A stretch of 64,000 nucleotides of DNA, taken from a virus. Lineage: Duplodnaviria; Caudoviricetes. The notes under the pieces were generated by a model, which saw only the letters and a program-made list of their open reading frames with translations, had not been told where the DNA came from and searched no databases. Within the stretch, counting starts at the first letter, position 1. Every line of letters starts with the position of its first letter. The position numbers and the translations under genes were made by a program. Of this stretch, positions 822 through 54,935 are shown one piece after another. Where the stretch lies: positions 2,400-66,399 of IMG/VR virus record IMGVR_UViG_2636416019_000001; one strand, given 5' to 3'.

Positions 822-1500
822 GTTGTTGACTTCCTTGTTCGACCGAAATTGGTCAAAATTAGTATAGTCGGGCTTCTATTTTTGGAAGCCTCGTTTCTTC
901 AATTTCTTCGACCATTTCCGAGAGCTCTTTGTCGGATAGCAGGCCACACCAGTGCTGGCCTTACGTCCCGGCTTTTCAAAGCTCGCAACGACGGCTCAGA
1001 GGGCGGCGTGGTATCGGGGTGCAATTTAGGGTAAAGCCGGAATCTGTAAGCGCCGGGATACGCCTAGCCCAATGGTATAAGGGGATTCGGTTGATAGTGA
1101 GGAAGGCGGGTAGGGCTAGCAATGTGATCGTGCGTACCTGCGGTGTTTACTAGCTTTAGACTAGTGATGTGCACGTATAGCTGTGGCTTTGATTGGTACA
1201 AAATTGGTACATGGGGCTTTTGGTTGGTCTGCGGTCCTTTATTCTTGAGGGCCTTAAGAAAAATGTGTCCAATTCATCATTGGATCGATTTGAACTGGTT
1301 CGTCTCTTGGCGCGGGGGTTGAGCTAGGTGCTTGTAGGGCGGCGGCTGTCACTGGGTTCTAAGCCGCTAGGAGCGCCTACGAAATCAGTTCCGCAATCAA
1401 AACCATGACCCGTGTAGGCCGTGGGTCCCAGCCTTTCTAAAGAATGGTGCTTGCGGAACGGATGTCTCATTAACTTATTGAAAATATTGAGATTTTATCT

Positions 1501-1547
1501 GGATTGCAAATCCGCCTACGCCGGTTCGATTCCGACCTCGGCCTCCA
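1501..1547 (+). repeat. 3' part of tRNA-Cys(GCA): attR-type duplication of an element integrated at tRNA-Cys left of the window
   Basis: GGATTGCAAATCCGCCTACGCCGGTTCGATTCCGACCTCGGCCTCCA gives anticodon arm (GCA), T arm and CCA; the 5' half is absent. Confidence 0.85.
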
Positions 1548-1552
1548 AACTG

Positions 1553-1587
1553 AAAACCCCGTAGATCAACGATCTACGGGGTTTTTT
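1553..1587 (+). terminator. intrinsic terminator after the tRNA-Cys 3' end
   Basis: AAAACCCCGTAGATC-AAC-GATCTACGGGGTTTTTT hairpin with T tract. Confidence 0.85.
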
Positions 1588-2038
1588 ATTGGCTGTAGGG
1601 AAGCAGGTGTTCCATCGCTTTTAATGGGGGGCAGGGCTCCGTGGTGCTTGGTCCTCCCAGAAATCTCTTGGGCGAGTTCATCGGGGCTATTTTGTGGCCT
1701 GCTATCTCCAGCAAAATGCGCAATCCCTTATCCGTCCTCCCGTGATGAGTAGGTCCAACCCGTTGTACCAATGTACCAGCTGTCTCCGGCGTCCGTGGCG
1801 TGGTTCATGGGGCTGCACGCACCTGGCGTGTCCGGCCGGATGCTCAACGAAATAGCAGAAATACTGACGATGGCGATCAAGGACTGATTGCTCTGTTGCG
1901 TATCAGGCGTTATCGCAAAGAAGCTTCCAGAGGCAAGTAGTGAAGTGCTTTTGTTTAGATGTATTGAGACATAGAGCTCAACTTAATATGAGGGCGTCTG
2001 GTGGTCGCTAGTCGGATGAGTGGTTTACTTTTTTACGG

Positions 2039-2073
2039 AAATGGCCAGCATCTTGTACGATACTGGCCATTTT
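2039..2073. terminator. probable terminator of the 2097-2393 gene
   Basis: AAATGGCCAG...CTGGCCATTTT inverted repeat just past the stop codon. Confidence 0.6.
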
Positions 2074-2096
2074 ATACACGCGCTTACTGCTAGGTA

Positions 2097-2393
2097 TTAC
2101 GCATTTGCCACTTTTCTCTTCCCGGCCGCAGCGACTGGGTTAAGAGTTCGGCCGTGATCCTTCACGAGGTTGTCTTCGATGACAATTACACTGTTGCAGG
2201 AGACGTAGTATTCAGTTGTTTGGGACTTATCCTGTATGGCCATCAAGTAACCCCTTGGGTCACTACGTTTCCAGGTGTCACCGTTGCCTTGCTCTAATGG
2301 GTAGTAAGCGTCACTGCCGTCTTTCTCCCATGTGCTGATTGCCACGTTAACTACTGTGCTTGCCCCGTTTGTGACTGTGATGCTCATCTTCAT
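2097..2393 (-). CDS. hypothetical small protein
   Basis: 98-aa ORF with AAGGAA RBS and downstream terminator. Confidence 0.75.
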   Translation of the reverse strand: MKMSITVTNGASTVVNVAISTWEKDGSDAYYPLEQGNGDTWKRSDPRGYLMAIQDKSQTTEYYVSCNSVIVIEDNLVKDHGRTLNPVAAAGKRKVANA

Positions 2394-3130
2394 ATTCCTT
2401 TTTGATTGTACATTCCATGAGTTGGCTCCCTATTCAAAATCAAGTTGCAGACTTGCCACTGCTACGGGAAATCAGTAGTTAGGTTAACTCATTGAAGATG
2501 TCGTGGAGTATTGATGGCAAAGGCGATTGATATCGGCGTCAAGGGTAGTGTCAGTTTCTTGAGCTGATATATTTCGTTTCCTCCTTCGATCATAGATAGG
2601 AATACAGTCAAGCCTGTAAACAGGTAAAAGCAAGGTACCCCCACCTTTATAAAGTGACGGTTCCGACGAGTGGTTGAATTAGTATCAGAGTCAATTATTT
2701 TTGCTGTTTTATCAATGTTCGCTCATGTGGGTTCTGCATCGAGATTTTCAATCTGGGGTAAAGGTGCTCCAACGGCGCGAAGGTCTGGCTATCGAACCCG
2801 ACAGATGACATGCGCTTGCTCGCCGAGGCGGCGGTCATTCGTTGCGCTTGGGCATATCTTCCAGCTGTGTTTTACAACGCTAAGATCATGCGGCTGATCC
2901 GTCTTGCCCTGGCCAACGGTTCCTGCCGCATGTGCGAATCAATGGAGTCCCATCCACCGCCTCGCTATCGCTGCCTGCTCAAGAGACTGGCTTGGCGGTT
3001 AAGGAAAGTGCCGCTCTCTGTCCGCCGACTTGGATAAGTAGCATCGCCAGCCCTGCCTCGAATGCTTCTGTCGATACGCTGGCCCGTCCGATTACCAGGC
3101 AGCCTTCCAGCACGACCAGGGTGCTCAAGG

Positions 3131-3325
3131 CACAACCGCTTCATCATGGCACCCTTGACCAGGTCGTTCTCGCCTGGTGGCGCCGCCACGGCACAGGTGG
3201 CGGCCTACTATCGTCGCCGCGCCGAGGGGGAGGTCGGCCTCATCATTTCGTAAGGGGCTGGCATTGCACGCCCGGCCGGCCGAACGATCCGAACGTTCCG
3301 CGTTTTCATGGCGAGCAGGCCGCGA
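3131..3325 (+). pseudogene. NADH:flavin oxidoreductase (old yellow enzyme family) N-terminal fragment
   Basis: HNRFIMAPLTRSFSPGG..VAAYYRRRAEGEVGLIIS then an in-frame TAA where E of SEG is expected; continues in another frame as NDPNVPRFHGEQA. Confidence 0.8.
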
Positions 3326-4137
3326 GTTCGGCGTGGATGATCTCCTCCATTGGATGGATGGCACCGTGGTGGATTTCGATACCCGATGACACAAGAAGGT
3401 GTAGACAAAATCGGCGCTAAGACGGCGTAGCCACAGGCGTGCTTCGCCCAGCTTCTTCAAGCCGTTCAGGTTTCTTCAGAATTGTCTTCGAGACATGCGC
3501 GACCGCTCTGGATAGAGTGGTCCCGCTTGCCCGGCCAGGTGTGTTTACGATGGATTGCTGAACGGCCAACAGCTGGTCAGGGTGGGCGCCAATTTATCAG
3601 GCATTACGCCTGGTGATCTTGTGGCACCTTTGAATAATCCCTCGTTGAAAAACTCCGGAAGAGCGATGCGGCTCTGTCTGTTTATTGCCCTTGCGTTTAG
3701 CTGATCGCGCCTTCGCAGTTTGGCCTTTGGCCTGCCTCTTCGACTTCGCTGGCTCATGGGGTTAGTGGCTTCGCGATCCCTACGCTGGCTGGGCAAATCT
3801 GCCTTCGCCTATTCGGCAAGCTGCAAGCCTTTTAAAATCAGATGGTTACGCTGTTTTTGCTGTGCTAACCTATTGAAATATCTGGTTTTATCAGTGGAAT
3901 GCGGTTCTATCTGCGCCGGTTCGGTTCTGGCTGTTGCTCCCACTTATAAAAATAGCTCTGTAGATCGATGATTTACGGAGCCTTTTTGTTTTTTGGCCGC
4001 ACTCGACATCCAGTCTTGAATTTGACGCCAACGAACTTGCTTCAAGGGTAGGGGATGTATATATTTCACCCCCTTGTCGCAAGGCGCTGAAACGGCTCAA
4101 GCAATTCAAGCCTTTCAGATTGCAACACCGCGCTACC

Positions 4138-4224
4138 GCCCGAATGGCGAAACTGGTAGACGCATGGGACTTAAAATCCCCCGCTCGTAAGGGCGTGCCG
4201 GTTCGATTCCGGCTTCGGGCACCA
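4138..4224 (+). tRNA. tRNA-Leu(UAA)
   Basis: GCCCGAA...TTCGGGC-ACCA acceptor stem, GGGA-CTTAAAA-TCCC anticodon arm, long variable arm, GTTCGATT T loop. Confidence 0.97.
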
Positions 4225-4227
4225 TCT
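4166..4227 (+). repeat. attL core (62 bp, 3' part of tRNA-Leu)
   Basis: GGGACTTAAAATCC...GGGCACCATCT identical to 60560-60621. Confidence 0.95.
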
Positions 4228-4275
4228 ATTTCAAGGGTTTGCGGCCTATAAAGCCGCAAGCACGCAACAAGTGAA

Positions 4276-4304
4276 TTGCCGCAATCCTAGATTGTTGCCG
4301 CAAT
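4276..4304 (+). promoter_or_regulatory. integrase arm-type sites
   Basis: TTGCCGCAAT at 4276 and 4295; same motif near attR at 60449 and inverted at about 60509-60518. Confidence 0.7.
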
Positions 4305-5330
4305 TCACTTGGTTGGCGAAACCTTCTTCCCCCTTCGATTCCTGATGTAATGCTCCGTCATGACAACCGTTGTGTGGCCGAGCTGGTCGCGGGCCTGGAC
4401 GATATCGCTTGACTCCTCTTTGTCTGTGCCAGCCTTGGCCCGCAGATCCCTCATCTGGAATTCAGGCTTGGCCACTCCAGCGGCTTCTCTGGCCAGGTCA
4501 AACCTTCTCCGCAACATTGCCGTCGTCATCGGCGTGCCATCTTCCAAAACGATCAGCCGCGTCGAGCGGACCTTGTGGGAAGCCTTTCTCGCCAGGATTC
4601 GATCAAGAACTACTTTCAACTCTCCCGTGATCTCGATGCGTCGTTTAGCTTTTGTCTTCCCTTGCTGAACAGAGAGACGGCCTTCGCGGATATCTCGCTC
4701 GTCCATTTTTAGAGTGTCGGCGATGCGCTGGCCAGTCAGATAAAACAAGTCCAAAGCATCCTGCAGGCCTACATCTGCCTTGTCGTACACTCGCTTAAGA
4801 AGCTCGTCCTCAACGTAGGTGTCTCGACCTGTCTCCTTGTTCCCCTTGATTCCAGAACAGGGGTTTGCCAGAGCCGTGTAGCCTTTGTCGCGCGCGTAGT
4901 TCCAAATGGCACTGAGGAGGGCTTTTTCTCGGTTGGCACGAACTGGCGCCGAGGATCGCCAGGTCAAATACTGCCTGATGTGTATGGGCTCGATGTTGTC
5001 GAGCGGCCCAGGAGGATCATCGAAGAAGGCAAGTAGGTTCTTCATTTCCCTGAGATTGTCCTTCTGGGTGTTTGAACCCTTGGTCGGAACAACCTCTACA
5101 AGGTATTTCTCGGCGACGTAGCGGAAGGTGATGACCTTCGCTGCGGCTGCAGTCGCGGTACGGTCGCGCTCCAGGCGCGCGTACTCCATGATCGCAACGC
5201 CGTAGTCCTTTCCCAGGTAGATCTCTTTGCGTGGCTTGCCTCCAAGGTCATATGTGAAGTACACCAGCTTGCCGCGCTTCCTTTCCCTTAGCCGGGATAT
5301 GCTCCCGGGCTTTGTCGGTCTACGTCCCAT
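4305..5330 (-). CDS. int: tyrosine recombinase (prophage integrase)
   Basis: 341 aa; LTGQR, RDLRAK, LGH and Y (MTEHY) catalytic motifs; adjacent to attL. Confidence 0.95.
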   Translation of the reverse strand: MGRRPTKPGSISRLRERKRGKLVYFTYDLGGKPRKEIYLGKDYGVAIMEYARLERDRTATAAAAKVITFRYVAEKYLVEVVPTKGSNTQKDNLREMKNLLAFFDDPPGPLDNIEPIHIRQYLTWRSSAPVRANREKALLSAIWNYARDKGYTALANPCSGIKGNKETGRDTYVEDELLKRVYDKADVGLQDALDLFYLTGQRIADTLKMDERDIREGRLSVQQGKTKAKRRIEITGELKVVLDRILARKASHKVRSTRLIVLEDGTPMTTAMLRRRFDLAREAAGVAKPEFQMRDLRAKAGTDKEESSDIVQARDQLGHTTVVMTEHYIRNRRGKKVSPTK

Positions 5331-5549
5331 TTATCCCGCCTTGCGTGGCTTCCAGGTTAGCTTTTCTTTCGGGTCTACTGGGCCGCCGATAAGAGCCGCC
5401 GAGATTACACATGGCCAGCCACTGCGCTTGATGGTGTGGCGGATTCCATTTCGAACGAGAACTGCGATCTGTCCGGCCTTCGTCCTTGCTCCAGTCAGTT
5501 GGCACACATCCTCGTGTGATAAAAATTCGATTGTCATAAATTGCTCCAT
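5331..5549 (-). CDS. DUF4224-type excisionase-like DNA-binding protein
   Basis: FLSHEDVCQLTG...Q...L..NGI motif; directly upstream of int. Confidence 0.75.
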   Translation of the reverse strand: MEQFMTIEFLSHEDVCQLTGARTKAGQIAVLVRNGIRHTIKRSGWPCVISAALIGGPVDPKEKLTWKPRKAG

Positions 5550-5686
5550 GCCGCGCGTGGCGCATAGGTGAGGAGATAAGCGAGGGCACCGTCTGTCAGT
5601 GGCGCAGAGCCTGAGCTTGATGGCAGGCTGCCATGGACTAGAGTTTTCAGTGCTGTAAGGAAGTTCACCTCATAAGGAGATGAGTC

Positions 5687-6073
5687 ATGCTTGATGAACA
5701 AGATTCGATTGATCCGCGCGAATCCTTTACTGCTGCAGTGCAAGCAGATCTGGATGGATTCACTTTCTTAGGCAACGGTCGTTGCGAAATCAAAAACAGT
5801 GAAGGTGAGAGGGCAGGCGCCAACTTCGTTGAGTCTGCAATTCAGCAGTACAAATCCTTCAAGCTGGTTTCGGCTGCCGGGTCGGGAACCTTCATGGTTC
5901 GACTGGATTACGCCGGCGGTTCCGACAAGAACCTTCACTACGTTGATGTGACACCCAACGCTTCCTCTGAGTCGTTTAACATCCGTTCTGTTTCGATGAA
6001 CAACCTCAGAGGTCTTTTCCCAGCCGGCAAGAGTTCGACCAATCTGAACTTTGCTGTTTATGGTCGGCCTTGA
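5687..6073 (+). CDS. hypothetical protein (antisense moron)
   Basis: 128 aa, TAAGGAG RBS, own hairpin CTCCGACTGA-ATTC-TCAGTCGGAG-TTTT at about 6098-6125. Confidence 0.8.
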   Translation: MLDEQDSIDPRESFTAAVQADLDGFTFLGNGRCEIKNSEGERAGANFVESAIQQYKSFKLVSAAGSGTFMVRLDYAGGSDKNLHYVDVTPNASSESFNIRSVSMNNLRGLFPAGKSSTNLNFAVYGRP

Positions 6074-6138
6074 TTTAGCTGGATAGTAGGCCCAGAGCTC
6101 CGACTGAATTCTCAGTCGGAGTTTTCATTTGTCGTGGC

Positions 6139-6255
6139 TCAGATCATCCGGGCCATGGTGTAAATCTTGGTGGTGCCCAGCCCAACCAGCTTCTTGACTT
6201 CTGGCAGGCGGATGTACTCGATTACTTCTGGCTCGGTGTTGCATTCGGTGTTCAT
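6139..6255 (-). pseudogene. truncated AlpA-family regulator/recombination directionality factor
   Basis: translated by hand: MNTECNTEPEVIEYIRLPEVKKLVGLGTTKIYTMARMI*; AlpA N-terminus with the C-terminal part missing. Confidence 0.7.
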
Positions 6256-6534
6256 GGGGATTCCTTGCCCGCCAACGGCAGACCTTCAGGTTTATTCAGA
6301 ATTGTGTTCGGGACAGTTGTCGCGACAGTTTGTAGAGTTGCGCCGCTCGACCGGCTCAGCGCACTTGTAAAGGGGCGAATGCGCTGGCCGGGACGAGCGC
6401 CAATTCAGATTTCGGGCGTGGGCATTTTGGAAAGCTCTGATGGTTGCCGGCGTTGCGCGCGGCTATCGTTGAGTCGTTCGCCCGGCCCGTTGTCCTGGCT
6501 ATCCGTCGACTGCAACACGGGCTGTGGCGAACTC

Positions 6535-6927
6535 CTATTGCGTGGTCAGCTCGCTGGGCACTTCGAAGAAGCCGAGCCGGCCCTTGAACGGGATGAATGG
6601 CAGCGGCTTCGGATCGCGCAGCAGGAATCCCTTCTGCCCCATGTACCAGGGCGAGTCGCTGGTATCGAGGCTATCGACCAGCTCAACCGAGCCGATGATG
6701 CCGCCCAGTAGAAGCTCGTTGATCGTCGGAACTTCCGCCGGGTGATTGATCAATCCCGCCTGTATGGCAAACGAAACCGCCTCGGTCCATTGCTTGCGCG
6801 TGCAGCCCGCCGAGGCGTGAACCAGGAACTGGCCGCGATGCTTCGTGTGCCAGCTGCGGTTTTCAATGTCCTTGCCGCCGTGAATGATCAGCCAGGCCCA
6901 GGGCTGGCGGATTGAGAGAGCTTTCAT
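6535..6927 (-). CDS. ASCH domain protein
   Basis: ALSIRQPWAWLII.GGKDIENRSW..GRLGFF signature. Confidence 0.9.
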   Translation of the reverse strand: MKALSIRQPWAWLIIHGGKDIENRSWHTKHRGQFLVHASAGCTRKQWTEAVSFAIQAGLINHPAEVPTINELLLGGIIGSVELVDSLDTSDSPWYMGQKGFLLRDPKPLPFIPFKGRLGFFEVPSELTTQ

Positions 6928-7235
6928 GGCTTCACCTTCAGGCCCTGGGCCTCGATAGCCTTCACGCAGGAATCGCGCATCCGGACTGCGGCGTGATAGG
7001 CGTCCATGTGGCTGTCGTCGATGGCGAACTCAGGCTCTTCCGGCTCGACTGGCACTGGCGGAAGTTCCACCACCACGACCTGACGGGAGGCCTGCCAAGC
7101 CCACCACGCCATGTGAACGTTGAACAGGTTTTGTTTGATCATGTGGAGCGCCGAGTCGCGGAATCCCTCTCCGCACAGCCGAACCTCCTCTTCGACGAAA
7201 GCAGCTTCGAATTGCTCGCGCATCTTGTCGTTCAT
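6924..7235 (-). CDS. phage hypothetical protein
   Basis: MNDKMREQFEA..AWWAWQASR motif common in phage early genes; stop overlaps the ASCH start. Confidence 0.7.
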   Translation of the reverse strand: MNDKMREQFEAAFVEEEVRLCGEGFRDSALHMIKQNLFNVHMAWWAWQASRQVVVVELPPVPVEPEEPEFAIDDSHMDAYHAAVRMRDSCVKAIEAQGLKVKP

Positions 7236-7506
7236 CGCTTCGGCCCTCGGTAGATGTTCCAGCCGATGAACAGCAGTGCGGGGAGGGAGAGCATGATCAT
7301 GGCTGGACCTCCACGTCGATATGCTGGATGTCTTCGATATCGCCCAGGTCTTCCTCGTCGATCTGGCCTCCAGCGAGGTCGGGGAGCCGCTGCAGTTGTT
7401 CGATCTCGTCCTCGTCCATGTCGTCCATGACCTTGCGGAAGCCTGTGGCGCGGAACGCAATAAACATGAGGTGATACGATGGGCCTTCACTGAACTGGGA
7501 AGGCCC

Positions 7507-7737
7507 ATGACAAAGCACGATATCTATGACGAGCTGGAAGGATTTCAGCTCTGGAACTACATGGAGTGCGAGAAAGACGAGGAAGGTCGGGAGACCTGGC
7601 GGATCAACGTCGAGGTGAAGCGGGGCGGGGAAGTGGTGGTGCCGGTTGTTGCTGGCGATCGCACATTCCCCGACCGGGGCCTGGCCCAGGTCGCAGGCCG
7701 GGAGCTGGGGGCGAAGTTGCTGGCCGAGCGCGGTTAA
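7507..7737 (+). CDS. hypothetical protein (antisense moron)
   Basis: MTKHDIYDELEGF..., GGAAGG upstream; converges on the MTase stop. Confidence 0.65.
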   Translation: MTKHDIYDELEGFQLWNYMECEKDEEGRETWRINVEVKRGGEVVVPVVAGDRTFPDRGLAQVAGRELGAKLLAERG

Positions 7738-9896
7738 GCTGCTCGGGACTGCTGTTCAGCCACGCGCCACGGATCATTGGCCCTGGCCAGTGCCGCCATC
7801 GGCGGCGGGCTGACGCTATTGCCGCACATGTGCACCTGCTGGGTTTTGGTGAACGGCTTGCCGTCGGCGCCGCGGTCGATGATGTAGTCGGCCGGGAAAC
7901 CCTGGGCCTTGTAGAGTTCCGACGGCTGCAGCATCCGCAGGCAGATATCGACGATCACGTAAGGAGTACCCCTGATGGTCACGGTGACCAGGCCCAGGCG
8001 GTCCTTGGTGGTGATGGTCGGCGCTGGTGCGTCGGCTCCGCTGATGTTCTCGGTTCCGTAGTAACTGATCAGGAAAGCGGCGACACGCAGGGCACCTGCC
8101 TCGACCTCTGGCGAGAGCTGCAGCTCTACCAGCGAGCTTTTGCCGCCGCCTCCCGCCGTGATGGTGGGGGCTGGCTCGTCCACGGCCTGGCCGACACTAG
8201 CGCCAAACTGGCGCTCCATGAAGGCTGTCATCAAACCGTGGTGGGTGCCGCCTGCGCTGATAGTGTGAAGCGGGTCGCCTGCGTCTCGCGCATCGCAGTG
8301 GCCGCGCAGGTGCACCAGGTTTGCCGTCACCAGCTGCTGCTGGCTCCCGGTGTTGGTCACGGTGGTCATCGGGTCCTCGATGCTCTTGGCGGCGGTGGTG
8401 TTGAAGCCGCCATTCATCTGGGCCATGAACACCGTGGATATGCCCATTGCGTGGGCGGCTCCGGCAGGGCGCTGGTAGTTCCCGCCGCTGGTAATGGTAG
8501 GCAGCGGCTCGCCGAGTGCCTTTCCTTCGTCTGCAAACCGAAACTTCACCAGGTGCGCCGCAGCGATCGCGCGGTGGTTCTGGGTCATCAGTGTCCCTGC
8601 CGGCTGATCCACGGCGGCTGGCTTGCCGGAATACTCGGGTCCGCCAGCACCGACCAGCACCGCACCAGCGAGGGCATGTTTCACTCCGCCTGCAACGACA
8701 GTGCCCAGGGGCTGGCCAAGGCCTGGCACACGCGGTTCCTGGCCGGTGCGCTCGCCATATCCCGTCTGGATAAGGGTCGGGCTGATCAGCGTCAGCTCGC
8801 CGCGGTTCGCGCAGGTCACGGTCGGTAGCGGCGAGTTCGGATCGTTCACCCGGTCGCTGCCCTGGTGCGTTGCCGGCGCAATGATCGGGCTGGCCATGGC
8901 GAATGATCCGCCACGGGGCCAGGAGGTCACCGTGCGCAGCGGCTCATGCGCTGACTGCACGCTGTCGCCGGACCAGTTCGCAATCGGCACGATGAATGGA
9001 TCGGCGGCATCGAGGACGAATTTTTTCATGCCCTTGGCAATCCGGCGCAGGGTTGCGGGGGCCAGTGGCTTCGGCCTGTCGAAGATGCTTTTGCTCGGGA
9101 TCGTCCAGTCGATGCACTCGGCGGCGGTGCGCCACTTCTTTTGGCCCTTGGCCGGGTTCTTGGCGTGGGTCGGTTCCGGCCACACGATGGGCTGGCCATC
9201 GCACCGGGCGATCATGAACAGGCGTTCACGGCTGGTCGGCGCGCCGTAGTCGCAGGCCTTCAGCACCCGCCATTCAACGGTGTAGCCGAGGCGCTGCAGC
9301 TCGGCGACGAATACGGCCCAGGTCTGGCCGCGGCGTTTCGGGTCGGGCACCAGGAACTGCTGGTGGACCGGCACAACCTCACCCGGCGCCGCTATGTCGC
9401 CGCCTAGCTTCACCACGCGGCCAGTGGCTTTGTCGCGCTTGGCCACCAGCGGCCCCCATTGCAGGATCTGTTTCACGTTCTCCAGGCTGATAACGCGGGG
9501 CTTTTTCTTGCCGGCCCACTTCAGCCCGATCCATGACAGGTTGCGGATCTCCCGTTTGCGCGGCTGGCCGCCGGCGGCCTGGCTGTGGTGGGTGCAGTCT
9601 GGCGACATGTGGAACCAGCCCACGGCCTTGCCGCCGCATTCGGTGTCCGGATCACCATCGAAAACATCGGTAGTGAAGTGCACGGCGCCCGGGTGGTTCA
9701 CAGTGTGCATGCTGATCGCGCTGGGGCTGTGGTTTTTCGCGACATTCACCGCGCGGCCCAGGCCCATCTCCAGGCCGGTACCGGCACCGCCACCACCACA
9801 GAAGAAGTCGACCACAATCTCATCGTCCTGAGTGCTGAAGCCGAGTCCATACTGGGTTTTGAAGTCGAAGGGGTGTTTCTTCTGTTGTGCGGACAT
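7734..9896 (-). CDS. DNA (cytosine-5) methyltransferase with expanded repetitive variable region
   Basis: motif I DFFCGGGG, IV SPDC, VI ENV, VIII RERLF, IX R.L..SELYKAQGFP, X CGNSV. Confidence 0.92.
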   Translation of the reverse strand: MSAQQKKHPFDFKTQYGLGFSTQDDEIVVDFFCGGGGAGTGLEMGLGRAVNVAKNHSPSAISMHTVNHPGAVHFTTDVFDGDPDTECGGKAVGWFHMSPDCTHHSQAAGGQPRKREIRNLSWIGLKWAGKKKPRVISLENVKQILQWGPLVAKRDKATGRVVKLGGDIAAPGEVVPVHQQFLVPDPKRRGQTWAVFVAELQRLGYTVEWRVLKACDYGAPTSRERLFMIARCDGQPIVWPEPTHAKNPAKGQKKWRTAAECIDWTIPSKSIFDRPKPLAPATLRRIAKGMKKFVLDAADPFIVPIANWSGDSVQSAHEPLRTVTSWPRGGSFAMASPIIAPATHQGSDRVNDPNSPLPTVTCANRGELTLISPTLIQTGYGERTGQEPRVPGLGQPLGTVVAGGVKHALAGAVLVGAGGPEYSGKPAAVDQPAGTLMTQNHRAIAAAHLVKFRFADEGKALGEPLPTITSGGNYQRPAGAAHAMGISTVFMAQMNGGFNTTAAKSIEDPMTTVTNTGSQQQLVTANLVHLRGHCDARDAGDPLHTISAGGTHHGLMTAFMERQFGASVGQAVDEPAPTITAGGGGKSSLVELQLSPEVEAGALRVAAFLISYYGTENISGADAPAPTITTKDRLGLVTVTIRGTPYVIVDICLRMLQPSELYKAQGFPADYIIDRGADGKPFTKTQQVHMCGNSVSPPPMAALARANDPWRVAEQQSRAA

Positions 9897-47350: not shown

Positions 47351-48100
47351 ATGCCACTGATCAGCGATATCCAGTCCCTTGAGCCTGGCAGTGAGGTGCT
47401 GCTCTTCGAGTTGGACGGTTCCGACTACGGGGCGGACGTGCTGCGCTTCCATGGGCATGCAATCCCGCATACGCCGGAGGAGCTGCTGGCAGCGGGGCCA
47501 AACGCCGACCAGATGCCGGCCAAGGCGATCTGGTGGCAGGGCAATGAGTACGGCGCCTGGCCTATGCAAATCGACGGCATCGAAGCCAACGGAGACGGCA
47601 CCGCGGTACGCCCGACGCTGTCGGTCGGCAACGTCAACGGCCGCATCACGGCCCTGTGCCTGGCCTTCGATGATCTGCTCGAGTTCAAGCTGACGATGCG
47701 GCACACGCTGGGCAGCTACCTGGACGCGCAGAACTTCCCGGGCGGCAACCCAACGGCTGACCCCACCCAGGAAACAATCGAGGTCTGGTACATCGACCAG
47801 AAGACCAACGAAGACGGGGAAACGGTCAGCTGGGAGCTGGCCAGCCCGGGCGACGTTGGTGGCGAATCCATCGGTCGGCAGGCGACCACGCTTTGCCACT
47901 GGTGCCTCACCGGTGGTTACCGCGGGCCGAACTGCGGCTACACCGGCGGCTACGTCGACAAAGACGGCTTACCCACGAACGATCCGGAAAAGGATGAGTG
48001 CGATGCCACCCTGGGGCGGGGATGTATTCCGCGTTTCGGCGAGGGTAACGAGCTGCCTTTCGGTGGCTTCCCCGCTGTTTCCATCATTGCCCGGAGCTGA
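47351..48100 (+). CDS. minor tail protein L-like
   Basis: RPTLSVGN, C.W..YRG..CGY..C..C..FGGFP Fe-S cysteines. Confidence 0.92.
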   Translation: MPLISDIQSLEPGSEVLLFELDGSDYGADVLRFHGHAIPHTPEELLAAGPNADQMPAKAIWWQGNEYGAWPMQIDGIEANGDGTAVRPTLSVGNVNGRITALCLAFDDLLEFKLTMRHTLGSYLDAQNFPGGNPTADPTQETIEVWYIDQKTNEDGETVSWELASPGDVGGESIGRQATTLCHWCLTGGYRGPNCGYTGGYVDKDGLPTNDPEKDECDATLGRGCIPRFGEGNELPFGGFPAVSIIARS

Positions 48101-48102
48101 CC

Positions 48103-48867
48103 ATGCGCAAACACATCCTGAGCGCGATTCAGGCGCACGCGGCGGCCGAGTACCCGAAAGAGTGCTGCGGCCTGCTGCTGGCCGTTGGGCGCAAGCAGCA
48201 GTACTTCCCATGTCGCAACATTGCCATGGAGCCGAACGAGGAGTTCCGGCTGGATCCAGAGGACTACGCCGCGGCCGAGGATCAGGGTGAGGTGATCGGC
48301 ATCGTGCATTCGCACCCAGACGCTACCAGCCGGCCGTCGCCACGCGACCTTGCCATGTGCGAGGCCACGGCGCTGCCCTGGCACATCCTGAGCTGGCCCG
48401 AAGGGGATCTGCGCACCATCGCGCCTGCGGGCAACACGCCGCTGCTCAAGCGCCCCTTCGTCCACGGCGCCTGGGACTGCTGGCAGGTCTGCGCAGACTG
48501 GTTCAAGCGTGAGTGGGGGCTGGAGTTCGAAGCTTTCCAGCGCGCTGATGGCTGGTGGGAAGACCCGGCCGGGCCGAGCCTCTACGAGCAGGCCTATGAA
48601 GCGGCGGGATTTGTGCGGGTTGACCAGCCGCAGCGTGGCGACATGATCGTCATGTCCGTGGGGCGCACGGCACACCCGAACCATGCCGGGATCTACCTTG
48701 GCGCCGATCCGGAACTGCCTGGGGAGTCTGCCGAGGTATTTGGCCCCGGGCCTTTCCTGTTGCACCACCTGTATGGCCGGCCAAGCGAAATCATCGTTTT
48801 CGGCGGCCCCTGGCTCGATCGAACGCGCCTGATCCTCAGGCATAAAGATGCACAATCAATCACATGA
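48103..48867 (+). CDS. tail assembly protein K-like (JAB + NlpC/P60)
   Basis: ECCG, HSHP..PS..D, DCW, HAGIYLG. Confidence 0.92.
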   Translation: MRKHILSAIQAHAAAEYPKECCGLLLAVGRKQQYFPCRNIAMEPNEEFRLDPEDYAAAEDQGEVIGIVHSHPDATSRPSPRDLAMCEATALPWHILSWPEGDLRTIAPAGNTPLLKRPFVHGAWDCWQVCADWFKREWGLEFEAFQRADGWWEDPAGPSLYEQAYEAAGFVRVDQPQRGDMIVMSVGRTAHPNHAGIYLGADPELPGESAEVFGPGPFLLHHLYGRPSEIIVFGGPWLDRTRLILRHKDAQSIT

Positions 48868-48892
48868 TGCGGCAGGGCCGCGGGAGAGAGAA

Positions 48893-49030
48893 ATGAAAAA
48901 GGCAATTTGCAGCGATGCGAAGGATTCGGCCGGCAAGCCGATGTGGTGTTTGATGCCGGATGGCAGCTTTTTCATCAGCCAAGAGTCTGTCGATCAGGCC
49001 AGCATCCAGCACTTGAAACTTAAAAGGTAG
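48893..49030 (+). CDS. 45-aa peptide resembling the J C-terminal (DUF1983-like) segment
   Basis: GGAGAG RBS; GSFFISQESVDQASIQHLKL vs J GQTFIRSTFIEDGTITNAKI. Confidence 0.6.
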   Translation: MKKAICSDAKDSAGKPMWCLMPDGSFFISQESVDQASIQHLKLKR

Positions 49031-49054
49031 TTTGCTTTGGCGCTTCCATACTAC

Positions 49055-49276
49055 TCAGTCAACAACTGTTGGAAGGTTTTTGCCTGGAAAGACCTTTTTA
49101 TAAACCTCTAGCGGATAGTGGTCGCCAACACCCTGCTGCCGGCAGGCGTAAACAGCAGCTCCAATTCGCTGCATTGCATGCTCTGGGTTGGCTGAAGCCT
49201 GGGTGTGCGCGAGCGCGAGTACCAAGGCGGTGAGCTGAGCAATTGTGTGTTCAACGCTTATTTCTTGCTGTGACAT
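49055..49276 (-). CDS. 73-aa hypothetical protein (antisense moron between K and I)
   Basis: GGAGG RBS; MSQQEISVEHTIAQLTALVLALA... Confidence 0.75.
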   Translation of the reverse strand: MSQQEISVEHTIAQLTALVLALAHTQASANPEHAMQRIGAAVYACRQQGVGDHYPLEVYKKVFPGKNLPTVVD

Positions 49277-49494
49277 TGTAACCTCCAGGTCATAAAGCGC
49301 CGAAATTGGCGCAATCCCAGTCCTTGGGCTTGCAGGCAAAGGGCTGGGAAATCCGTTGCGTGTGGCAGGAGGCTACTATCCGGCGGGAGAGGGGCGTTAC
49401 TGGGGATTCGTACAGGCGGGTTTTGGCGCTGAAATTTCGCCAAGCAACTTGGCAGTGGTAGAGTTTCCCGACTTAGAACAGGGATGCTCTTGAT

Positions 49495-50343
49495 GTGAAC
49501 ACGCTGAAGTTGGTTCAACCTTATCTGCTTGAGCCTGGTGATTCGGTGAACCCTACCGATCGAGAGTGTTACCGCTTGACGAGCGATGATAAGCGACAGA
49601 TTGAAGCCGCGATTGAAAAACATGGTGCTGGCGCTCTTGAAAACGTTACCAAGGGTGGAGCAATGCTCTACTTGCGGTTTCCCATGCGATTTGCCGGCGA
49701 GGATGAAGAATACCTGAGGTCATTGTTCGCACCTGAAACCTTGAAGCAAAGGCCCTGGGATGGCCCTGAGCAAATTGCTCTCAATGTGCGAGACACGGGA
49801 AAGATCGGAGTCGACGGAAAGCGTATCCAGTTGGTTGAAACGTTTAATCCCTTTGTTGAGCGATATTACCGACTGCCATACAGGAATATGCTTCCTCCCT
49901 CTGGAGACATCGTTGGTTATCGCTTTATGGCCATGCCCTGGAGAAAAAACAGGCTTCATGTTCTTCAGCAGCATGGGCGCATTGAATGTATTCCGCCGGG
50001 AATGTTGCCGATCTTTATCGAGGAAGATTGGCAGGGCGGCTGGATAGGAATCACGAAGCACCAGATCGAGTTTAAAGACTGGCAGCAAATGTCATCCGAC
50101 ATAGGCACCATCCCTGCGAATGGTGGTGATTACCTACGGTTTTTGCTTATGGCTAAGACCATTGGCGCCACCAGGTGCAGCTACCAGGAGAAGCTTGGCC
50201 TTCTTGAGGGCATGAGGATTATGTGCGGCGCTGACGGGCATTTCTTTGATGAGTTCATTGAAAGAGTCGGCGGTTTCCGTGGCCTGGCTGGGATAATGGA
50301 GACAGAATGTGAGAACGATGATGAAGAAGGTGAGGATGAGTGA
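49495..50343 (+). CDS. hypothetical protein (moron)
   Basis: 282 aa, lower GC, extended -10 TGGTAGAGT at 49456-49464. Confidence 0.8.
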   Translation: MNTLKLVQPYLLEPGDSVNPTDRECYRLTSDDKRQIEAAIEKHGAGALENVTKGGAMLYLRFPMRFAGEDEEYLRSLFAPETLKQRPWDGPEQIALNVRDTGKIGVDGKRIQLVETFNPFVERYYRLPYRNMLPPSGDIVGYRFMAMPWRKNRLHVLQQHGRIECIPPGMLPIFIEEDWQGGWIGITKHQIEFKDWQQMSSDIGTIPANGGDYLRFLLMAKTIGATRCSYQEKLGLLEGMRIMCGADGHFFDEFIERVGGFRGLAGIMETECENDDEEGEDE

Positions 50344-50767
50344 TTTGAGAGCTTTCGGGCTTATGGTAGTGGTGGCGCTGCTGGCAGGGTGTGCCACATC
50401 TCCAACACCTTCAGGAGAGGCCCGCCAGGCGCCACAGAGCCAGGTGCTCGCGTACCAAAGCAAACCATCAGGTGCGCATGGCATCCTTCAAGTCATTCGC
50501 GACTCTGGCCATACCGGCAGCTTTTGTTCGATGGCAGTTTTCATTGACGGAAAGCAGGTTGCTAGGCTCGATCCAGGCCAGAAGGCATCCTTCTATCTGC
50601 CGCCTGAACCTGTATCGGTTGGTGCGGCCTACACCGGATCAGGCATCTGCTCAATGGGTGCCGCCAGAGTAGAGCGCGAAGCAACTGTGAAGGACGGTGT
50701 TGTTAAAAAGTATCGAGTATTCACTGGCGGTGATGGGCAGATCGACATACTCCCCACAACGCTTTAA
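50336..50767 (+). CDS. lipoprotein (moron)
   Basis: lipobox LAGC; RDSG..C...VFIDG domain; terminator at about 50772-50796. Confidence 0.85.
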   Translation: MSDLRAFGLMVVVALLAGCATSPTPSGEARQAPQSQVLAYQSKPSGAHGILQVIRDSGHTGSFCSMAVFIDGKQVARLDPGQKASFYLPPEPVSVGAAYTGSGICSMGAARVEREATVKDGVVKKYRVFTGGDGQIDILPTTL

Positions 50768-50810
50768 ACACAACCGCCTCCGGGCGGTTTTTTATTGCCT
50801 GGAGAATGGC

Positions 50811-51419
50811 ATGTGCTCAGCTATCACTTACACCCCAACGACGAAAGTCATGCTCTCAGGCTCGCTAGCGAAAAAATTCTTTCGTAGTAAACCCTACCTC
50901 TTAGATGGAGGCTCTGCTGTAGAAGTGTTCCGCGCGCTGAATGCAACAGTTGCTGGATTTGCTGAAGAAATAAGGCGCCTTGAGCGCCTGGGGTTGAAGT
51001 TCGCGATCTTTCGCAATCGCAAGAATGTCGGAGTGGATGGATTCGATCTCGGCGGCACAAGAGAGATCCGCATTGCCCCGGTCATCGGTGGCAGCAAGAG
51101 GGCTGGTGGCTTACAGACGATCATTGGCACGGTAATGATCGCTGCTGCATATGTGCTTTCGTTCACGCCCTTTGCTGCTGCGTCGCCATTTCTGTACGCG
51201 GCGGGTACGTCTATGGCAATTGGCGGCGTGATCCAAATGCTTAGCCCCCAGCAGAATGGTCTTTCGCAAAGCGCATCCCCCGAGAACCTACCGTCCTATG
51301 CCTTCGGCAGCGCCAAGAATACCACCGCCAGCGGCAACCCTGTCCCGATCTGCATCGGCAAGCGCCGCTGGGGCGGGATGATCATTTCTGCATCGATCCA
51401 CGCCGAAGACAAAACGTAA
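50811..51419 (+). CDS. tail assembly protein I-like
   Basis: IRIAPVIGGSK..QTIIG..SYAF..NTTASGNPVP. Confidence 0.9.
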   Translation: MCSAITYTPTTKVMLSGSLAKKFFRSKPYLLDGGSAVEVFRALNATVAGFAEEIRRLERLGLKFAIFRNRKNVGVDGFDLGGTREIRIAPVIGGSKRAGGLQTIIGTVMIAAAYVLSFTPFAAASPFLYAAGTSMAIGGVIQMLSPQQNGLSQSASPENLPSYAFGSAKNTTASGNPVPICIGKRRWGGMIISASIHAEDKT

Positions 51420-51476
51420 CCAGAACACCGCACACAGGCCGCCCATGAGGCGGTTTTTTTATGCCTGGAGGAAAGC

Positions 51477-54400
51477 ATGGGCGCAGCAGCACAAATCGAG
51501 ATCCGCGGGGAAAAGGGCGGCAGCAGCAAGCCGAAGTCGCCGACCGAAGCCAACGACAGCCTGCGCTCGACCAACCTGGCCAAGATGCTGATCGCGGTGG
51601 GCGAGGGTGAATTCGACGGTACACCGACCGACTACGACATTTATCTGGACAACACGCCGATCAAGGATGCGAGCGGGAACATCAACTTCCCGAACGTGAA
51701 ATGGGACTGGCGCTCGGGCTCCGTGGATCAGTCGTACATCCCAGGCATCCCCTCGGTCGAAAACGAGACCACGCTGAACATCGAGCTGCGCAGCGATACC
51801 CCATGGGTGCGATCGATCACCAACACCCAGCTTTCGGCCGCGCGCATTCGGTTCGCTTGGCCGGCCCTGCAGCGCCAGGACGACGAAGGTAACGTCGGTG
51901 GCTATCGCATCGAGTATGCGATCGATGTGGCCACCGATGGCGGTGCCTATCAGCAGGTGCTGCTCGAGGCGGTGGATGGCAAGACCACCACCCGTTACGA
52001 GCGGTCCCGCCGTGTTGATCTGCCGCCTGCCACCAGCGGTTGGCTGATTCGTGTGCGCCGGCTGACGCCAAACCAGAACAGCAACAAGGTCGCCGACACC
52101 ATGCTGATCGCCGGCCTGACTGAGGTGATCGACGCGAAGTTGCGGTACCCAAACACCGCGCTGCTGTACATCGAGTTCGACGCCGAGCAGTTCACCAACA
52201 TTCCGGCCGTCACCGTGAAGTGCAAGGCGCGCAAGTGGCAGGTTCCGAGCAACTACGACCCTGTGGCCCGAACCTACACCGGGACCTGGGACGGCACCAT
52301 GAAACAGGCCTGGACCAACAACCCGGCGTGGATCACCTTCGGGGTCTGCACTGAGGATCGTTTCGGCCTGGGCAAGCGCATCAAGCCCTGGATGGTCGAC
52401 AAGTGGGAGTTGTACCGGATCTCGCAATACTGCGACCAGAACGTGCCTAACGGCCTCGGTGGCCAGGAGCCGCGCTTCCTCTGCGACATGAACTTGCAGG
52501 GCAAGGCCGACGCCTGGTCGCTGCTGCGCGATATCGCCGGCATCTACCGGGGCATGACCTATTGGGCCCAGGGCCAGCTGGTGATGCAGGCCGACATGCC
52601 GCGCGCCCAGGACTACGACTACGTTTTCACCCGGGCCAACGTCATCGATGGGAAGTTCTCCTACGGCAGCGCCTCGGCCAAGACCCGGTACACCCGGGCC
52701 CTGGTCAGCTACGACAACCCGGCGAACAACTACGACACCGACGTCATTCCGTTCGCGGATCTGGAGCTGCAGCGCCGCTTTGGCGACAAGCCCACGGAAC
52801 TGACGGCCATTGGCTGCACCCGCGCTTCGGAGGCACAGCGCCGCGGTAAGTGGGTGATCCTGAGCAACAACCAGGACCGGACCATCAGCTTCAAAACCGG
52901 TATGGAAGGGGTGATTCCGTTGCCTGGCCACATCATCCCTGTGGCGGACTCGCTGCTCGCCGGTCGGGCCGTTGGCGGGCGGATCTCGGCGTCTGCTGGC
53001 CGCGTGGTAACGCTCGACCGCGATACCCAGGCCAAAGCCGGCGATCGGCTGATCATCAACCTACCAGGTGGGCGCGCCGAAGGCCGGACCGTGCAAAGCG
53101 TCACCGGGCGCGCCGTCACAGTGACCACGGCCTACAGCGAGCAGCCTTTGCCTCAGTTGCAGTGGGCTCTGGATGCCGACGACCTGGCGATCCCGCTTTA
53201 CCGGGTGCTGAGCACCAAACGCACCACCGAGGGCGATTTCGAGATCAGCGCGCTGCAGTACGAGCCCGGCAAGTTCGCTTTCATCGACACCGGCGCCCGC
53301 CTGGAGGAGCGGCCGATCAGCGTGATCCCGATCACTGTCGTTCCGCCGCCGGCGAGCGTGACCCTGACCTCGAACTACGCGGTCGACCAGGGCATCGCCG
53401 TCAGCACCATGAACATCTCCTGGCCAGCCGTGAATGGCGCTGTGGCCTATGACGTGGAGTGGCGCAAGGACAACGGGAACTGGATCAAGGTGCAGCGCAC
53501 TGGTGCGACCAGTGTGGACGTGACCGGGATCTACGCCGGCGCCTATCTGGCCCGGGTGCGGGCGGTGAGCGCCTTCGATATCTCGTCGATCTGGAAGGCG
53601 TCCAACCTGACCCAGCTCAACGGCAAGGAAGGTCTACCACCGTCGGTATCGTTCCTGGCTACCACCAGTGAGCTGTTCGGGATCGGCATCAAGTGGGGAT
53701 TCCCGGCCGGCGCCGAGGACACCCAACGGACCGAGGTCTGGTATGGGCCTGCGAACGACCTTGGCACCGCCACGAAGCTAGCCGACCTGGCGTATCCGCA
53801 GGCCGACTACCGCATGCAGAGCTTGCTGGCAGGCGCAACCTTCTTCTTCTGGGCGCGTCTGGTAGATCGGACCGGCAACGTCGGGCCGTTTTATCCGGTC
53901 GTGAACGGGGTAATGGGCCAGGCCAGTTCGGAGGCCGGGCCGATCCTCGACATGCTCGCGGGCAAAATCAGCCGCACGGAGCTGGGTCAGGACCTGATAT
54001 CGGAGATCGACGGCCTGCAGGACCAGATCGACGCCCTGGACAACATCCTGCTGTACGACGCTGAGAAGACGTACATCAAGGACGATATTGTCCAGCAGGG
54101 GCAGCGGCTGTACCAGGCCCTGCAAGCGGTGCCTCTCAACACTCCACCGCCGAACCCGACCTACTGGCTGGACGTTGGTCAGTCGATCGAGACGGCCAAC
54201 GGCCTGGCTCAGCAGGTGGCGACCAATACCGCCGATATCACCGAGCTGGACGGGGTGGTAACGGCGCAGGCGGCCTCTACCAACACGCTCCGCGCGTCCT
54301 GGCGGGAAGATGATGGCGCCGGCGATCTGGCCGATGCCATGAAGGGCTGGGACAACACCGCGGCAATTGTTACCGAGGAGAAGGTCCGAGCTTCTGCGAT

Positions 54401-54935
54401 CGAGGCCGAGGCCACTCGCACCACACAGCTGCAGGCCACGGTGGGTGCGAACACTTCGGCGATCCAGGAAACGTCTTCAGCCCTGGCGAACACCAACGGC
54501 CAACTGTCTACCATCTGGTCGGTGAAGATGGAGACCACCGCCGGCGGCCAGAAGTACGCGGCCTCGTTTGGCCTGGGCCTGCAGGTCGATCCTTCCGGGG
54601 TTTCGTCGCAGTTCGTTGTGCGTGCCGACACTTTCATGCTGCTGAACCTAGCCAATGGCACGCCGGTGTCGCCGTTTGCGGTAACCGGCGGCCAGACGTT
54701 CATCAGGTCGACGTTCATCGAAGACGGCACGATCACGAACGCCAAGATCGGCAACTACATCCAGTCGAACAACTACGTCGCCGGCAGTACCGGGTGGCGG
54801 CTGTGGTTTGACGGGACGTTCGAGATCAACAGCGCCCTGGGCGCCGGTGCTCGCCAGGTCATCAACAACAACGGTGGCAAGGTGTTCGATGAGAACGGCG
54901 TGAAGCGCTATCAGTGGGGGAACTTGGCCGCATGA
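51477..54935 (+). CDS. central tail fibre / tip attachment protein J-like
   Basis: 1152 aa; EGE, RYPNTA, WTNNPAW, FnIII-like region and DUF1983-like C-terminus. Confidence 0.95.
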   Translation: MGAAAQIEIRGEKGGSSKPKSPTEANDSLRSTNLAKMLIAVGEGEFDGTPTDYDIYLDNTPIKDASGNINFPNVKWDWRSGSVDQSYIPGIPSVENETTLNIELRSDTPWVRSITNTQLSAARIRFAWPALQRQDDEGNVGGYRIEYAIDVATDGGAYQQVLLEAVDGKTTTRYERSRRVDLPPATSGWLIRVRRLTPNQNSNKVADTMLIAGLTEVIDAKLRYPNTALLYIEFDAEQFTNIPAVTVKCKARKWQVPSNYDPVARTYTGTWDGTMKQAWTNNPAWITFGVCTEDRFGLGKRIKPWMVDKWELYRISQYCDQNVPNGLGGQEPRFLCDMNLQGKADAWSLLRDIAGIYRGMTYWAQGQLVMQADMPRAQDYDYVFTRANVIDGKFSYGSASAKTRYTRALVSYDNPANNYDTDVIPFADLELQRRFGDKPTELTAIGCTRASEAQRRGKWVILSNNQDRTISFKTGMEGVIPLPGHIIPVADSLLAGRAVGGRISASAGRVVTLDRDTQAKAGDRLIINLPGGRAEGRTVQSVTGRAVTVTTAYSEQPLPQLQWALDADDLAIPLYRVLSTKRTTEGDFEISALQYEPGKFAFIDTGARLEERPISVIPITVVPPPASVTLTSNYAVDQGIAVSTMNISWPAVNGAVAYDVEWRKDNGNWIKVQRTGATSVDVTGIYAGAYLARVRAVSAFDISSIWKASNLTQLNGKEGLPPSVSFLATTSELFGIGIKWGFPAGAEDTQRTEVWYGPANDLGTATKLADLAYPQADYRMQSLLAGATFFFWARLVDRTGNVGPFYPVVNGVMGQASSEAGPILDMLAGKISRTELGQDLISEIDGLQDQIDALDNILLYDAEKTYIKDDIVQQGQRLYQALQAVPLNTPPPNPTYWLDVGQSIETANGLAQQVATNTADITELDGVVTAQAASTNTLRASWREDDGAGDLADAMKGWDNTAAIVTEEKVRASAIEAEATRTTQLQATVGANTSAIQETSSALANTNGQLSTIWSVKMETTAGGQKYAASFGLGLQVDPSGVSSQFVVRADTFMLLNLANGTPVSPFAVTGGQTFIRSTFIEDGTITNAKIGNYIQSNNYVAGSTGWRLWFDGTFEINSALGAGARQVINNNGGKVFDENGVKRYQWGNLAA

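Follow-up and report, generated by a model that had tools for sequence, protein, structure and literature searches.

The 64,000-nucleotide stretch analysed here (the window; positions 2,400 to 66,399 of the IMG/VR record IMGVR_UViG_2636416019_000001) belongs to a provirus with a lambda-like tail module, and between its tail genes K and I lies an interval of about 2 kb that, at ~50% GC against ~64% in both flanks, is marked by its composition as foreign. At the K end of this island two small open reading frames (ORFs) converge, their stop codons 24 nt apart: one, of 45 amino acids (aa), runs with the late operon, and the other, of 73 aa, lies antisense to the tail operon behind a conserved leader. 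The locus is one instance of an accessory module of two genes that occurs in the tail operon of lambda-like prophages of the Pseudomonas fluorescens group, mostly between K and I; the cassette abuts the 3' end of K, a conserved late gene, and I forms the other border of the island. An earlier reading, made from the letters of the window (the sequence-only reading), had taken the 73-aa protein for a blocker that binds the C-terminal segment of the central tail fibre J of superinfecting phages, and the 45-aa peptide for a self-protecting decoy of that segment. Its account of the two ORFs, with their ribosome-binding sites, starts and convergence, was borne out, as was their position between K (recognised by its Prok-JAB and NlpC/P60 domains) and I (recognised by phrog_32).

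Judged by conservation, both ORFs are real genes, because each has conserved relatives and a ratio of nonsynonymous to synonymous substitution (dN/dS) below one. The 73-aa gene (the cargo) starts with an ATG preceded at 5 nt by GGAGG, and its product is 67-100% identical to 12 homologues, of which those with a named source come from Pseudomonas; when 1.84 billion proteins were searched with its family profile, no more than 26 representatives came up, 24 of which are 70-89 aa long, and its dN/dS (Nei-Gojobori) was 0.06-0.36 in the five pairs with estimable dS out of seven compared. Searches of Pfam, PHROG and PADLOC assigned it to no family. The 45-aa gene (the partner) also starts with an ATG, with GGGAGAGAGAA just 5' of it; it has six close homologues (82-100% identity), a match to phrog_33126 (4.6e-5) and, by the same method, a dN/dS of 0.23-0.49 (5/5 pairs). 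AlphaFold2 models the 73-aa protein as three helices, with a predicted local distance difference test (pLDDT) score of 88.8, in agreement with its earlier description as helical, and the 45-aa protein as a beta-hairpin and a short helix (pLDDT 85.7).

On the same comparative grounds, the 73-aa and 45-aa genes form a real, linked pair that behaves as one unit, because they co-occur, have moved together to a second slot and overlap at their 3' ends. The cargo family of the window comprises 14 loci, in 12 of which the partner ORF follows the cargo (it is truncated at locus L092 and missing at L141), and each of the 10 K-adjacent loci of this family carries a partner-like ORF (family pp1), the more distant ones recognised by inspection of the ORFs. 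In tblastn searches, relatives of the 45-aa protein appeared only at loci that also have a relative of the 73-aa protein (6/6), and at L084 and L100 the pair follows the tail-chaperone genes instead of K. The cargo and partner genes overlap by 5-23 nt at their 3' ends in six of the eight other paired loci listed; counting gaps of less than 10 nt together with overlaps, the figure is 8/9 of the paired loci listed, the gap in the window being wider. The partner frame is also open upstream of its ATG (48848-48892) into the end of K, where it encodes MHNQSHDAAGPRERE, and this prefix is seen again in many loci, including L084, where K is absent, which suggests that the module has carried along a scrap of the 3' end of K.

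Table 1. Coordinates of the module, its neighbours and the tail fibre gene within the window.
Feature	Position	Strand	Remarks
Tail gene L	47351-48100		Part of the lambda-like tail module
Tail gene K	48103-48867	+	Pfam PF14464 (Prok-JAB) 5.7e-21, PF00877 (NlpC/P60) 1.3e-9; phrog_30
45-aa partner ORF	48893-49030	+	Late-operon orientation; candidate antidote/decoy, J-like mini-protein
73-aa cargo gene	49055-49276	-	Antisense to tail operon; candidate lysogen-expressed effector, predicted three-helix protein
Conserved leader of the 73-aa gene	49277-49354	-	Two hairpins and Shine-Dalgarno sequence
Shine-Dalgarno sequence GGAGG	49282-49286	-	Ahead of the ATG
Hairpin 2	49297-49312	-	
Hairpin 1	49316-49348	-	10-bp stem, 13-nt loop
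Two-part motif upstream of the leader	49366-49405	-	Candidate promoter
282-aa ORF	49495-50343	+	phrog_22882 1.2e-31, phrog_21762 5.4e-27, both unnamed; same island
152-aa lipoprotein	50309-50767	+	phrog_890 'lipoprotein' 4.6e-41; island gene
Terminator-like hairpin	50772-50789		Directly after the lipoprotein gene
Tail assembly gene I	~50838-51419	+	phrog_32 1.4e-58, from residue 48 of a long ORF
Central tail fibre J	51477-54935		
J residues 1065-1096 (SPFAVTGGQTFIRSTFIEDGTITNAKIGNYI)	54669-54764	+	Inside Phage_Tail_Tip; segment matched by the 45-aa family (hhalign); translation checked

Directly upstream of the start codon of the 73-aa gene is a leader of ~85 nt, in which, in the order of the minus strand, GGATT, hairpin 1, hairpin 2, the Shine-Dalgarno (SD) sequence GGAGG and the ATG follow one another. 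The sequence-only reading had called this leader structured. Its predicted fold has an energy of -45.6 kcal/mol (z -2.37), with 6/200 shuffled sequences folding equally well, and we accept the leader as real because it is conserved and not because of its folding energy. When the island was compared with phage records by BLAST, only the leader matched, in three otherwise unrelated records that align over both hairpins and the SD sequence ahead of different ORFs. These three are GenBank 'Bacteriophage sp.' records of faecal origin, from which we do not assume an enteric source: a 32-nt pattern taken from the leader occurs in at least 120 IMG/VR contigs and in 52 stretches of species-representative genomes, of which 50 are from Pseudomonas, one from Janthinobacterium and one from a Methylotenera metagenome-assembled genome. 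A covariance model (R1) built from 62 copies detected one or two leaders in each of five complete genomes; with the limit set at E 0.01 it hit 40 of the 151 genomes that were sampled from the genus, a tally that includes one flagged as unpublished. A search of Rfam (cmscan, 48500-51500, both strands, E up to 1) returned no family for the leader and only a weak P9 match at 51378-51458 (19.1 bits, E 0.66, far under the gathering score), a site within the late operon, between I and J, that has a terminator-like hairpin with a T-run.

The counts that follow are among the 176 leader instances analysed, the total being at least 176; nearly all of them lie in prophages of Pseudomonas. Downstream of the leader, 167/176 have an ORF of 30 aa or more, and in 111 of these 167 its start codon stands exactly 21 nt after hairpin 2. 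Stems and loops alike hardly vary, and hairpin 2 is succeeded by a short U-rich run. Divergent copies exist that have lost hairpin 2 and yet keep hairpin 1 (with G-U pairs and compensatory changes), the SD sequence, the ORF and a motif upstream of the leader. Across 39 copies, 95% of the cells at paired positions are paired and four pairs (8 cells) have changed on both sides, numbers of double changes and a covariation score that 0/500 shuffles reach; given an alignment that had been fitted to the model and is of low diversity, this covariation is modest support. In 41/176 instances the leader is intercistronic (e.g., L004:1906-2349 (-)), with a conserved ORF of ~115-148 aa directly upstream whose product has a CxxC...H motif and the C-terminus ...W(R/Q)L(I/V)V.TQTKG and belongs to no Pfam family.

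The positions of these leaders single out one place in the tail operon. Antisense copies have K downstream and I upstream in 84/176 instances, K only in 34 more and I only in 18 (the locus is often cut in these), while 31/176 have neither and 9/176 have K on the other side; put differently, an antisense K homologue is downstream in 118/176, an antisense I homologue is upstream in 109/176 as listed, and at least 136/176 copies lie antisense beside one or both genes. The K-I junction is therefore a hot spot for the cassette, which goes beyond what the sequence-only reading had noticed, as does the finding that so widespread a leader serves many unrelated cargos. The 161 complete cargo ORFs (median 82 aa) encode 132 distinct proteins in 26 BLAST clusters, and since joining at an hhalign probability of at least 80% is limited to two pairs of clusters (6 with 9, and 0 with 12), a single cargo superfamily can be rejected in favour of at least 24 unrelated families.

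These different cargos usually come with a companion. In nearly all K-adjacent loci the stop codon of K is separated from that of the cargo by 93-268 nt, and in most cases this interval contains a small late-strand ORF, conserved within a cargo cluster and different from one cluster to the next: all 13 cluster-1 cargos have partner family pp2, all four of cluster 10 have pp3, and all three of cluster 11 have pp4. Cognate pairing of cargo and partner is general, as far as comparison of the loci goes. Among 24 cargo representatives, one matched a defence database (L174:7020-7721 (+), 234 aa; PADLOC PDC-S02, 1.1e-16); this protein has nuclease domains of the NucS/YhcG-type PDDEXK kind behind the same leader, and the slot can therefore hold a gene of recognisable defence type.

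Upstream of the leader is a motif of two parts, CAGTAAC and, 15-16 nt further on, TAGTAGCCTCC, which is present in 56/155 distinct leader contexts, the divergent copies L213, L214 and L216 included. A CCTCC within the motif can pair with the SD sequence, and the minimum-energy fold does pair the motif with the SD region, so that the motif may be a promoter, an anti-SD element, or both. Only ~4% of the words of the stretch occur in the sequencing runs designated X1-X20, such that the parts left uncovered carry no meaning, and in the four runs that we aligned to the window the matching part is the leader. The RNA library X1 has a contig of 1162 nt that matches the window over 49281-49354 and departs from it to either side, being another cargo in another strain. 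Library X17 yielded contigs of 32-48 nt on 49297-49354, across both hairpins, at depths of 700-8000, with adapter sequence immediately after 49326, 49334, 49340, 49353 and 49354, whereas the contig that reaches towards the SD sequence has a depth of 87. The pattern hints at a short, abundant RNA running from the conserved GGATT across both hairpins, for which a stable small RNA, an attenuated transcript and a product of processing are the candidates, although such contigs give no certain strand, true ends or levels, and short-insert libraries enrich small structured fragments.

If the leader itself were the main product, as a small regulatory RNA of ~58 nt or an attenuator, and the ORFs behind it were secondary passengers, the steep fall in contig depth before the SD sequence, the U-rich run after hairpin 2 and the near-invariance of the loops and stems would all be expected. 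It would then be odd that nearly every copy is followed by an ORF with a strong SD sequence at a fixed spacing, and that divergent copies give up hairpin 2 and not the SD sequence and the ORF; and contig depth is a poor measure of RNA level, all the more so in libraries that favour small structured fragments. We regard this explanation as very unlikely.

The remaining question is what the pair does, and here the resemblance of the partner to J is central. The sequence-only reading had aligned the 45-aa peptide without gaps to a stretch of J (GQTFIRSTFIEDGTITNAKI, encoded at 54690-54749), and the 5/20 identities (G, F, I, I and K) are as it described; the significance of the match lies with the family and not with the single peptide. 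A hidden Markov model (HMM) of the relatives, prepared without the window copy and its closest relatives L115 and L166, and run against 924 six-frame ORFs of the window, had J as its best non-self match (E 0.0025, J ~1075-1093). Alignment by hhalign of the 45-aa family with 42 J C-termini gave, over the 32 columns that match J 1065-1096, a probability of 92% (P 5e-7); the score of 39.9 was reached by 0/200 column shuffles (best 19.5) and compares with 9.2 for the reversed alignment, and against the single J of the window the family still aligned at J 1071-1093 (P 0.001). PF09327 (Phage_Tail_Tip), which spans J 995-1132 (1.7e-45), was matched by 5/14 members of the 45-aa family (best E 5.6e-4) and is the sole Pfam family matched by more than one member. 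Chance similarity is rejected at the level of the family by all of these results, i.e., the HMM, hhalign, the shuffles and PF09327.

What the family shares with J is, from these alignments, a likeness to one segment and not membership of the Phage_Tail_Tip domain: the match covers ~30 residues of a 139-position model, and the members are free-standing mini-proteins, unlike the fibres in which PF09327 occurs. The C-terminus of J has a close relative of its own in the solved tail fibre of the F2 pyocin (25vf_A, E 2.3e-46), and some members of the 45-aa family are strikingly near to J variants from other loci. The resemblance recurs elsewhere. When HMMs of partner families were searched against all ORFs of the window, pp1 (1.7e-4) and pp5 (7.8e-5) matched J alone, and two more small partner families match the 'GLGL' motif of J (P 3-5e-5). 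By sequence comparison, then, the likeness to J is real for the 45-aa family and recurs in a few others, and it is not universal.

The same data bear on the view that the 73-aa gene is a stand-alone moron, with a role in exclusion, host modulation or regulation, and that the 45-aa ORF is a decaying or incidental remnant of J without function. A start codon, an SD sequence and a reading frame that are kept across relatives of only 12-40% identity, and a dN/dS below one in every partner pair, are not what such a remnant would show, even though the peptide is tiny, its dN/dS exceeds that of the cargo, and L141 and L092 have, respectively, no partner and a truncated one. Each cargo family, moreover, keeps its own partner, and the pair moves as a unit. 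The source of a remnant is not seen either: the match is to an internal segment of J and not to its last residues, and since in 0/46 pairs of J C-terminus and cargo does the cassette adjoin the 3' end of J (the nearest J end being at least 5 kb away), a simple carried-over piece of J is improbable as the origin. We therefore hold this account to be quite unlikely.

Systems with a similar organisation are known. Tab of the Pseudomonas phage JBD26 is reported to be a constitutive protein that acts via the tape measure protein to block tail assembly; anti-Tab, the product of a late gene that protects the phage itself, binds it (PMC10884400). In the JBD26 record (JN811560), anti-Tab (gp30, 1878-2129 (+)) directly follows the small terminase gene and converges with Tab (gp31, 2083-2334 (-)) with a 47-nt overlap. 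As here, a small minus-strand gene sits in the late operon (83 aa for Tab, 73 aa in the window), a small late-strand gene lies right after a late gene and converges on it (with the shorter overlaps seen among our relatives), and the host phages are temperate siphophages of Pseudomonas; the slot differs, being K-I in the one case and behind the small terminase gene in the other, and JBD26 is absent from the three phage records matched by the leader-containing query.

For the second known system, PMC11364771 reports that escape mutants of Tai map to the C-terminal region of J, which is where the likeness of the 45-aa family lies, that Tai and Ati are prophage morons in a 'noncontiguous operon', and that the counter-defence gene is expressed from the late transcript; Ati is reported there to bind Tai, and not to mimic J. 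In phi80 (JX871397), Tai and Ati are larger (204 and 76 aa), divergent and situated upstream of the packaging genes. Of the two precedents named in the sequence-only reading, Tab/anti-Tab shares the layout of the pair and Tai/Ati does not, and none of the four proteins is related to the pair in sequence. Classical lambdoid morons (the term is used in PMC10884400 and PMC11364771) are likewise extra genes with their own expression signals amid conserved late genes, and likewise have a base composition unlike that of their flanks, but the present module differs from them in that one leader serves so many unrelated cargos at a single preferred slot and most cargos have a cognate late-strand partner. 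Our literature search found neither this cassette nor a tail-fibre decoy described, the homologue lists in the Tai and Tab supplements, which may contain K-I cases, being outside its reach.

We consider it probable that the locus encodes a cognate effector and neutraliser of the Tab/anti-Tab kind, a statement that covers both a decoy and a plain neutraliser. The narrower proposal, that the 73-aa protein is a lysogen-expressed, J-targeting blocker of tail assembly and the 45-aa protein its late, J-mimicking antidote, is plausible, somewhat short of an even chance, and unproven. Under this proposal the cargo protein would be made in the lysogen from its own promoter and leader and would bind the J 1065-1096 segment of related superinfecting phages, blocking trimerisation or assembly of the tail tip and leading to tailless particles, as with Tai and Tab. 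Upon induction, late transcription from K would yield the J-like partner, which would soak up the cargo protein as a decoy, and would also produce antisense RNA across the cargo gene, so that decoy and antisense RNA together would spare the tails of the phage itself. The leader would act as an expression element at the level of RNA, offering a hairpin placed at the 5' end or close to it, a possible point of processing or attenuation and a strong SD sequence, and would let any cargo be swapped in.

Several results weigh against a J-targeting blocker and its decoy. The window peptide by itself has a best BLASTP E value of 0.13 against J, in another register, i.e., at chance level, and at E up to 10 it has no match to PF09327. 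No J match is seen for the large partner families pp0, pp2, pp3 and pp4, and of the 81 partner candidates of the other families only 4 touch PF09327 at E up to 1, as many as match an unrelated family; mimicry of J by all partners is thereby rejected. In the PDB, Foldseek found no match to the 73-aa model below E 4 and none to the 45-aa model below E 0.3, so that neither model lends structural support and no structural mimicry is seen, and the HMMs of PADLOC-DB 2.0 match none of the 45-, 60-, 73- and 94-aa forms. Homology to the known systems is rejected as well, with hhalign probabilities of 0.2% for the 73-aa family with Tab, 0.1% for the 45-aa family with anti-Tab, and 0.3% and 0.1% with phi80 orf63 (Tai) and orf64 (Ati). 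Nor does the known case require a decoy, since anti-Tab does not resemble its target (best E 2.9 against the tape measure protein, which disposes of anti-Tab as a mimic of that protein). A scan for sigma-70 promoters found 0 sites in 48700-51600, leaving the promoter as a conserved motif that is not sigma-70-like; the RNA contigs stem from other strains and say nothing on the cargo gene of the window; and divergence within the pair is not strict, the cargos of L132 and L157 differing at a proportion of nonsynonymous sites (pN) of 0.46 and their partners at 0.22.

Some of these observations would suit a plain neutraliser, in which the target of the effector is not J, the partner simply binds the effector, and the J motif is a recruited scrap of J serving as a beta-hairpin scaffold. 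Anti-Tab works in this manner according to PMC10884400, binding Tab, and it is unlike the tape measure protein that Tab targets; likeness to J is absent from most partner families; and the cargo families, being mutually unrelated, probably have different targets. This alternative has to contend with the fact that likeness to J, in three different segments of it, is found in three or four independent partner families at the least, while no partner family matches another protein of the window at E below 0.2, a recurrence that is hard to explain unless J matters functionally. We judge it unlikely on balance.

A reversal of roles can also be imagined: the late J-like peptide would be the active product, either as a helper of the phage's own fibre or as a dominant-negative poison of a rival's J trimer, and the antisense gene with its transcript would silence or neutralise it in the lysogen. 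Late genes are already silent in lysogens, which would make a dedicated protein antidote superfluous; the leader and the upstream motif serve the antisense gene and not the peptide; and many partners are not fibre-like. These points outweigh for us the considerations that a fragment of a trimerising fibre could, given the likeness to J, co-assemble with it and that a convergent overlap gives mutual antisense control, and we take the reversal to be highly improbable.

To return to the effector and its neutraliser, the wider distribution of the leader invites a more general proposal, to which we attach less belief than to the decoy at this one locus and which we would call possible though rather doubtful: that the module is a plug-in 'immune cassette', in which one leader and promoter motif drive at least 24 exchangeable effectors, mostly with cognate late-strand antidotes, several of these antidotes mimicking the fibre segment under attack, and the leader being a new, abundant structured RNA.

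The remainder of the island holds two genes of its own. The 282-aa ORF has no match in Pfam or PADLOC and has homologues in only four of the searched sequences, the window itself counted; homologues of the lipoprotein occur in 52, counted in the same way. The N-terminus of the lipoprotein is lipobox-like, making it a candidate for receptor masking or exclusion. Near the left end of the provirus record lies a gene for tRNA-Leu (anticodon TAA; 4138-4224), which may be the attachment-site tRNA.

If the effector-neutraliser reading holds, a whole hot spot of pairs of blocker and counter-defence genes, recognisable computationally from one leader, would join Tab and Tai, the only two prophage defences that block tail assembly and bring their own counter-defence in the papers cited; that leader is present in 40 of the 151 genomes sampled from the genus. 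The likeness of some partners to J suggests a rule for guessing targets, in that an antidote may resemble the target of its effector, and if the immune-cassette proposal is true, self-protection would be based on decoys, for which neither Tab nor Tai offers a described example. The leader, with no Rfam family and yet present in RNA libraries, is a candidate new RNA motif that could serve as a portable expression element. As a whole, the module lends itself to tests of how autoimmunity is avoided by prophages and of the way in which essential operons exchange the accessory genes within them.

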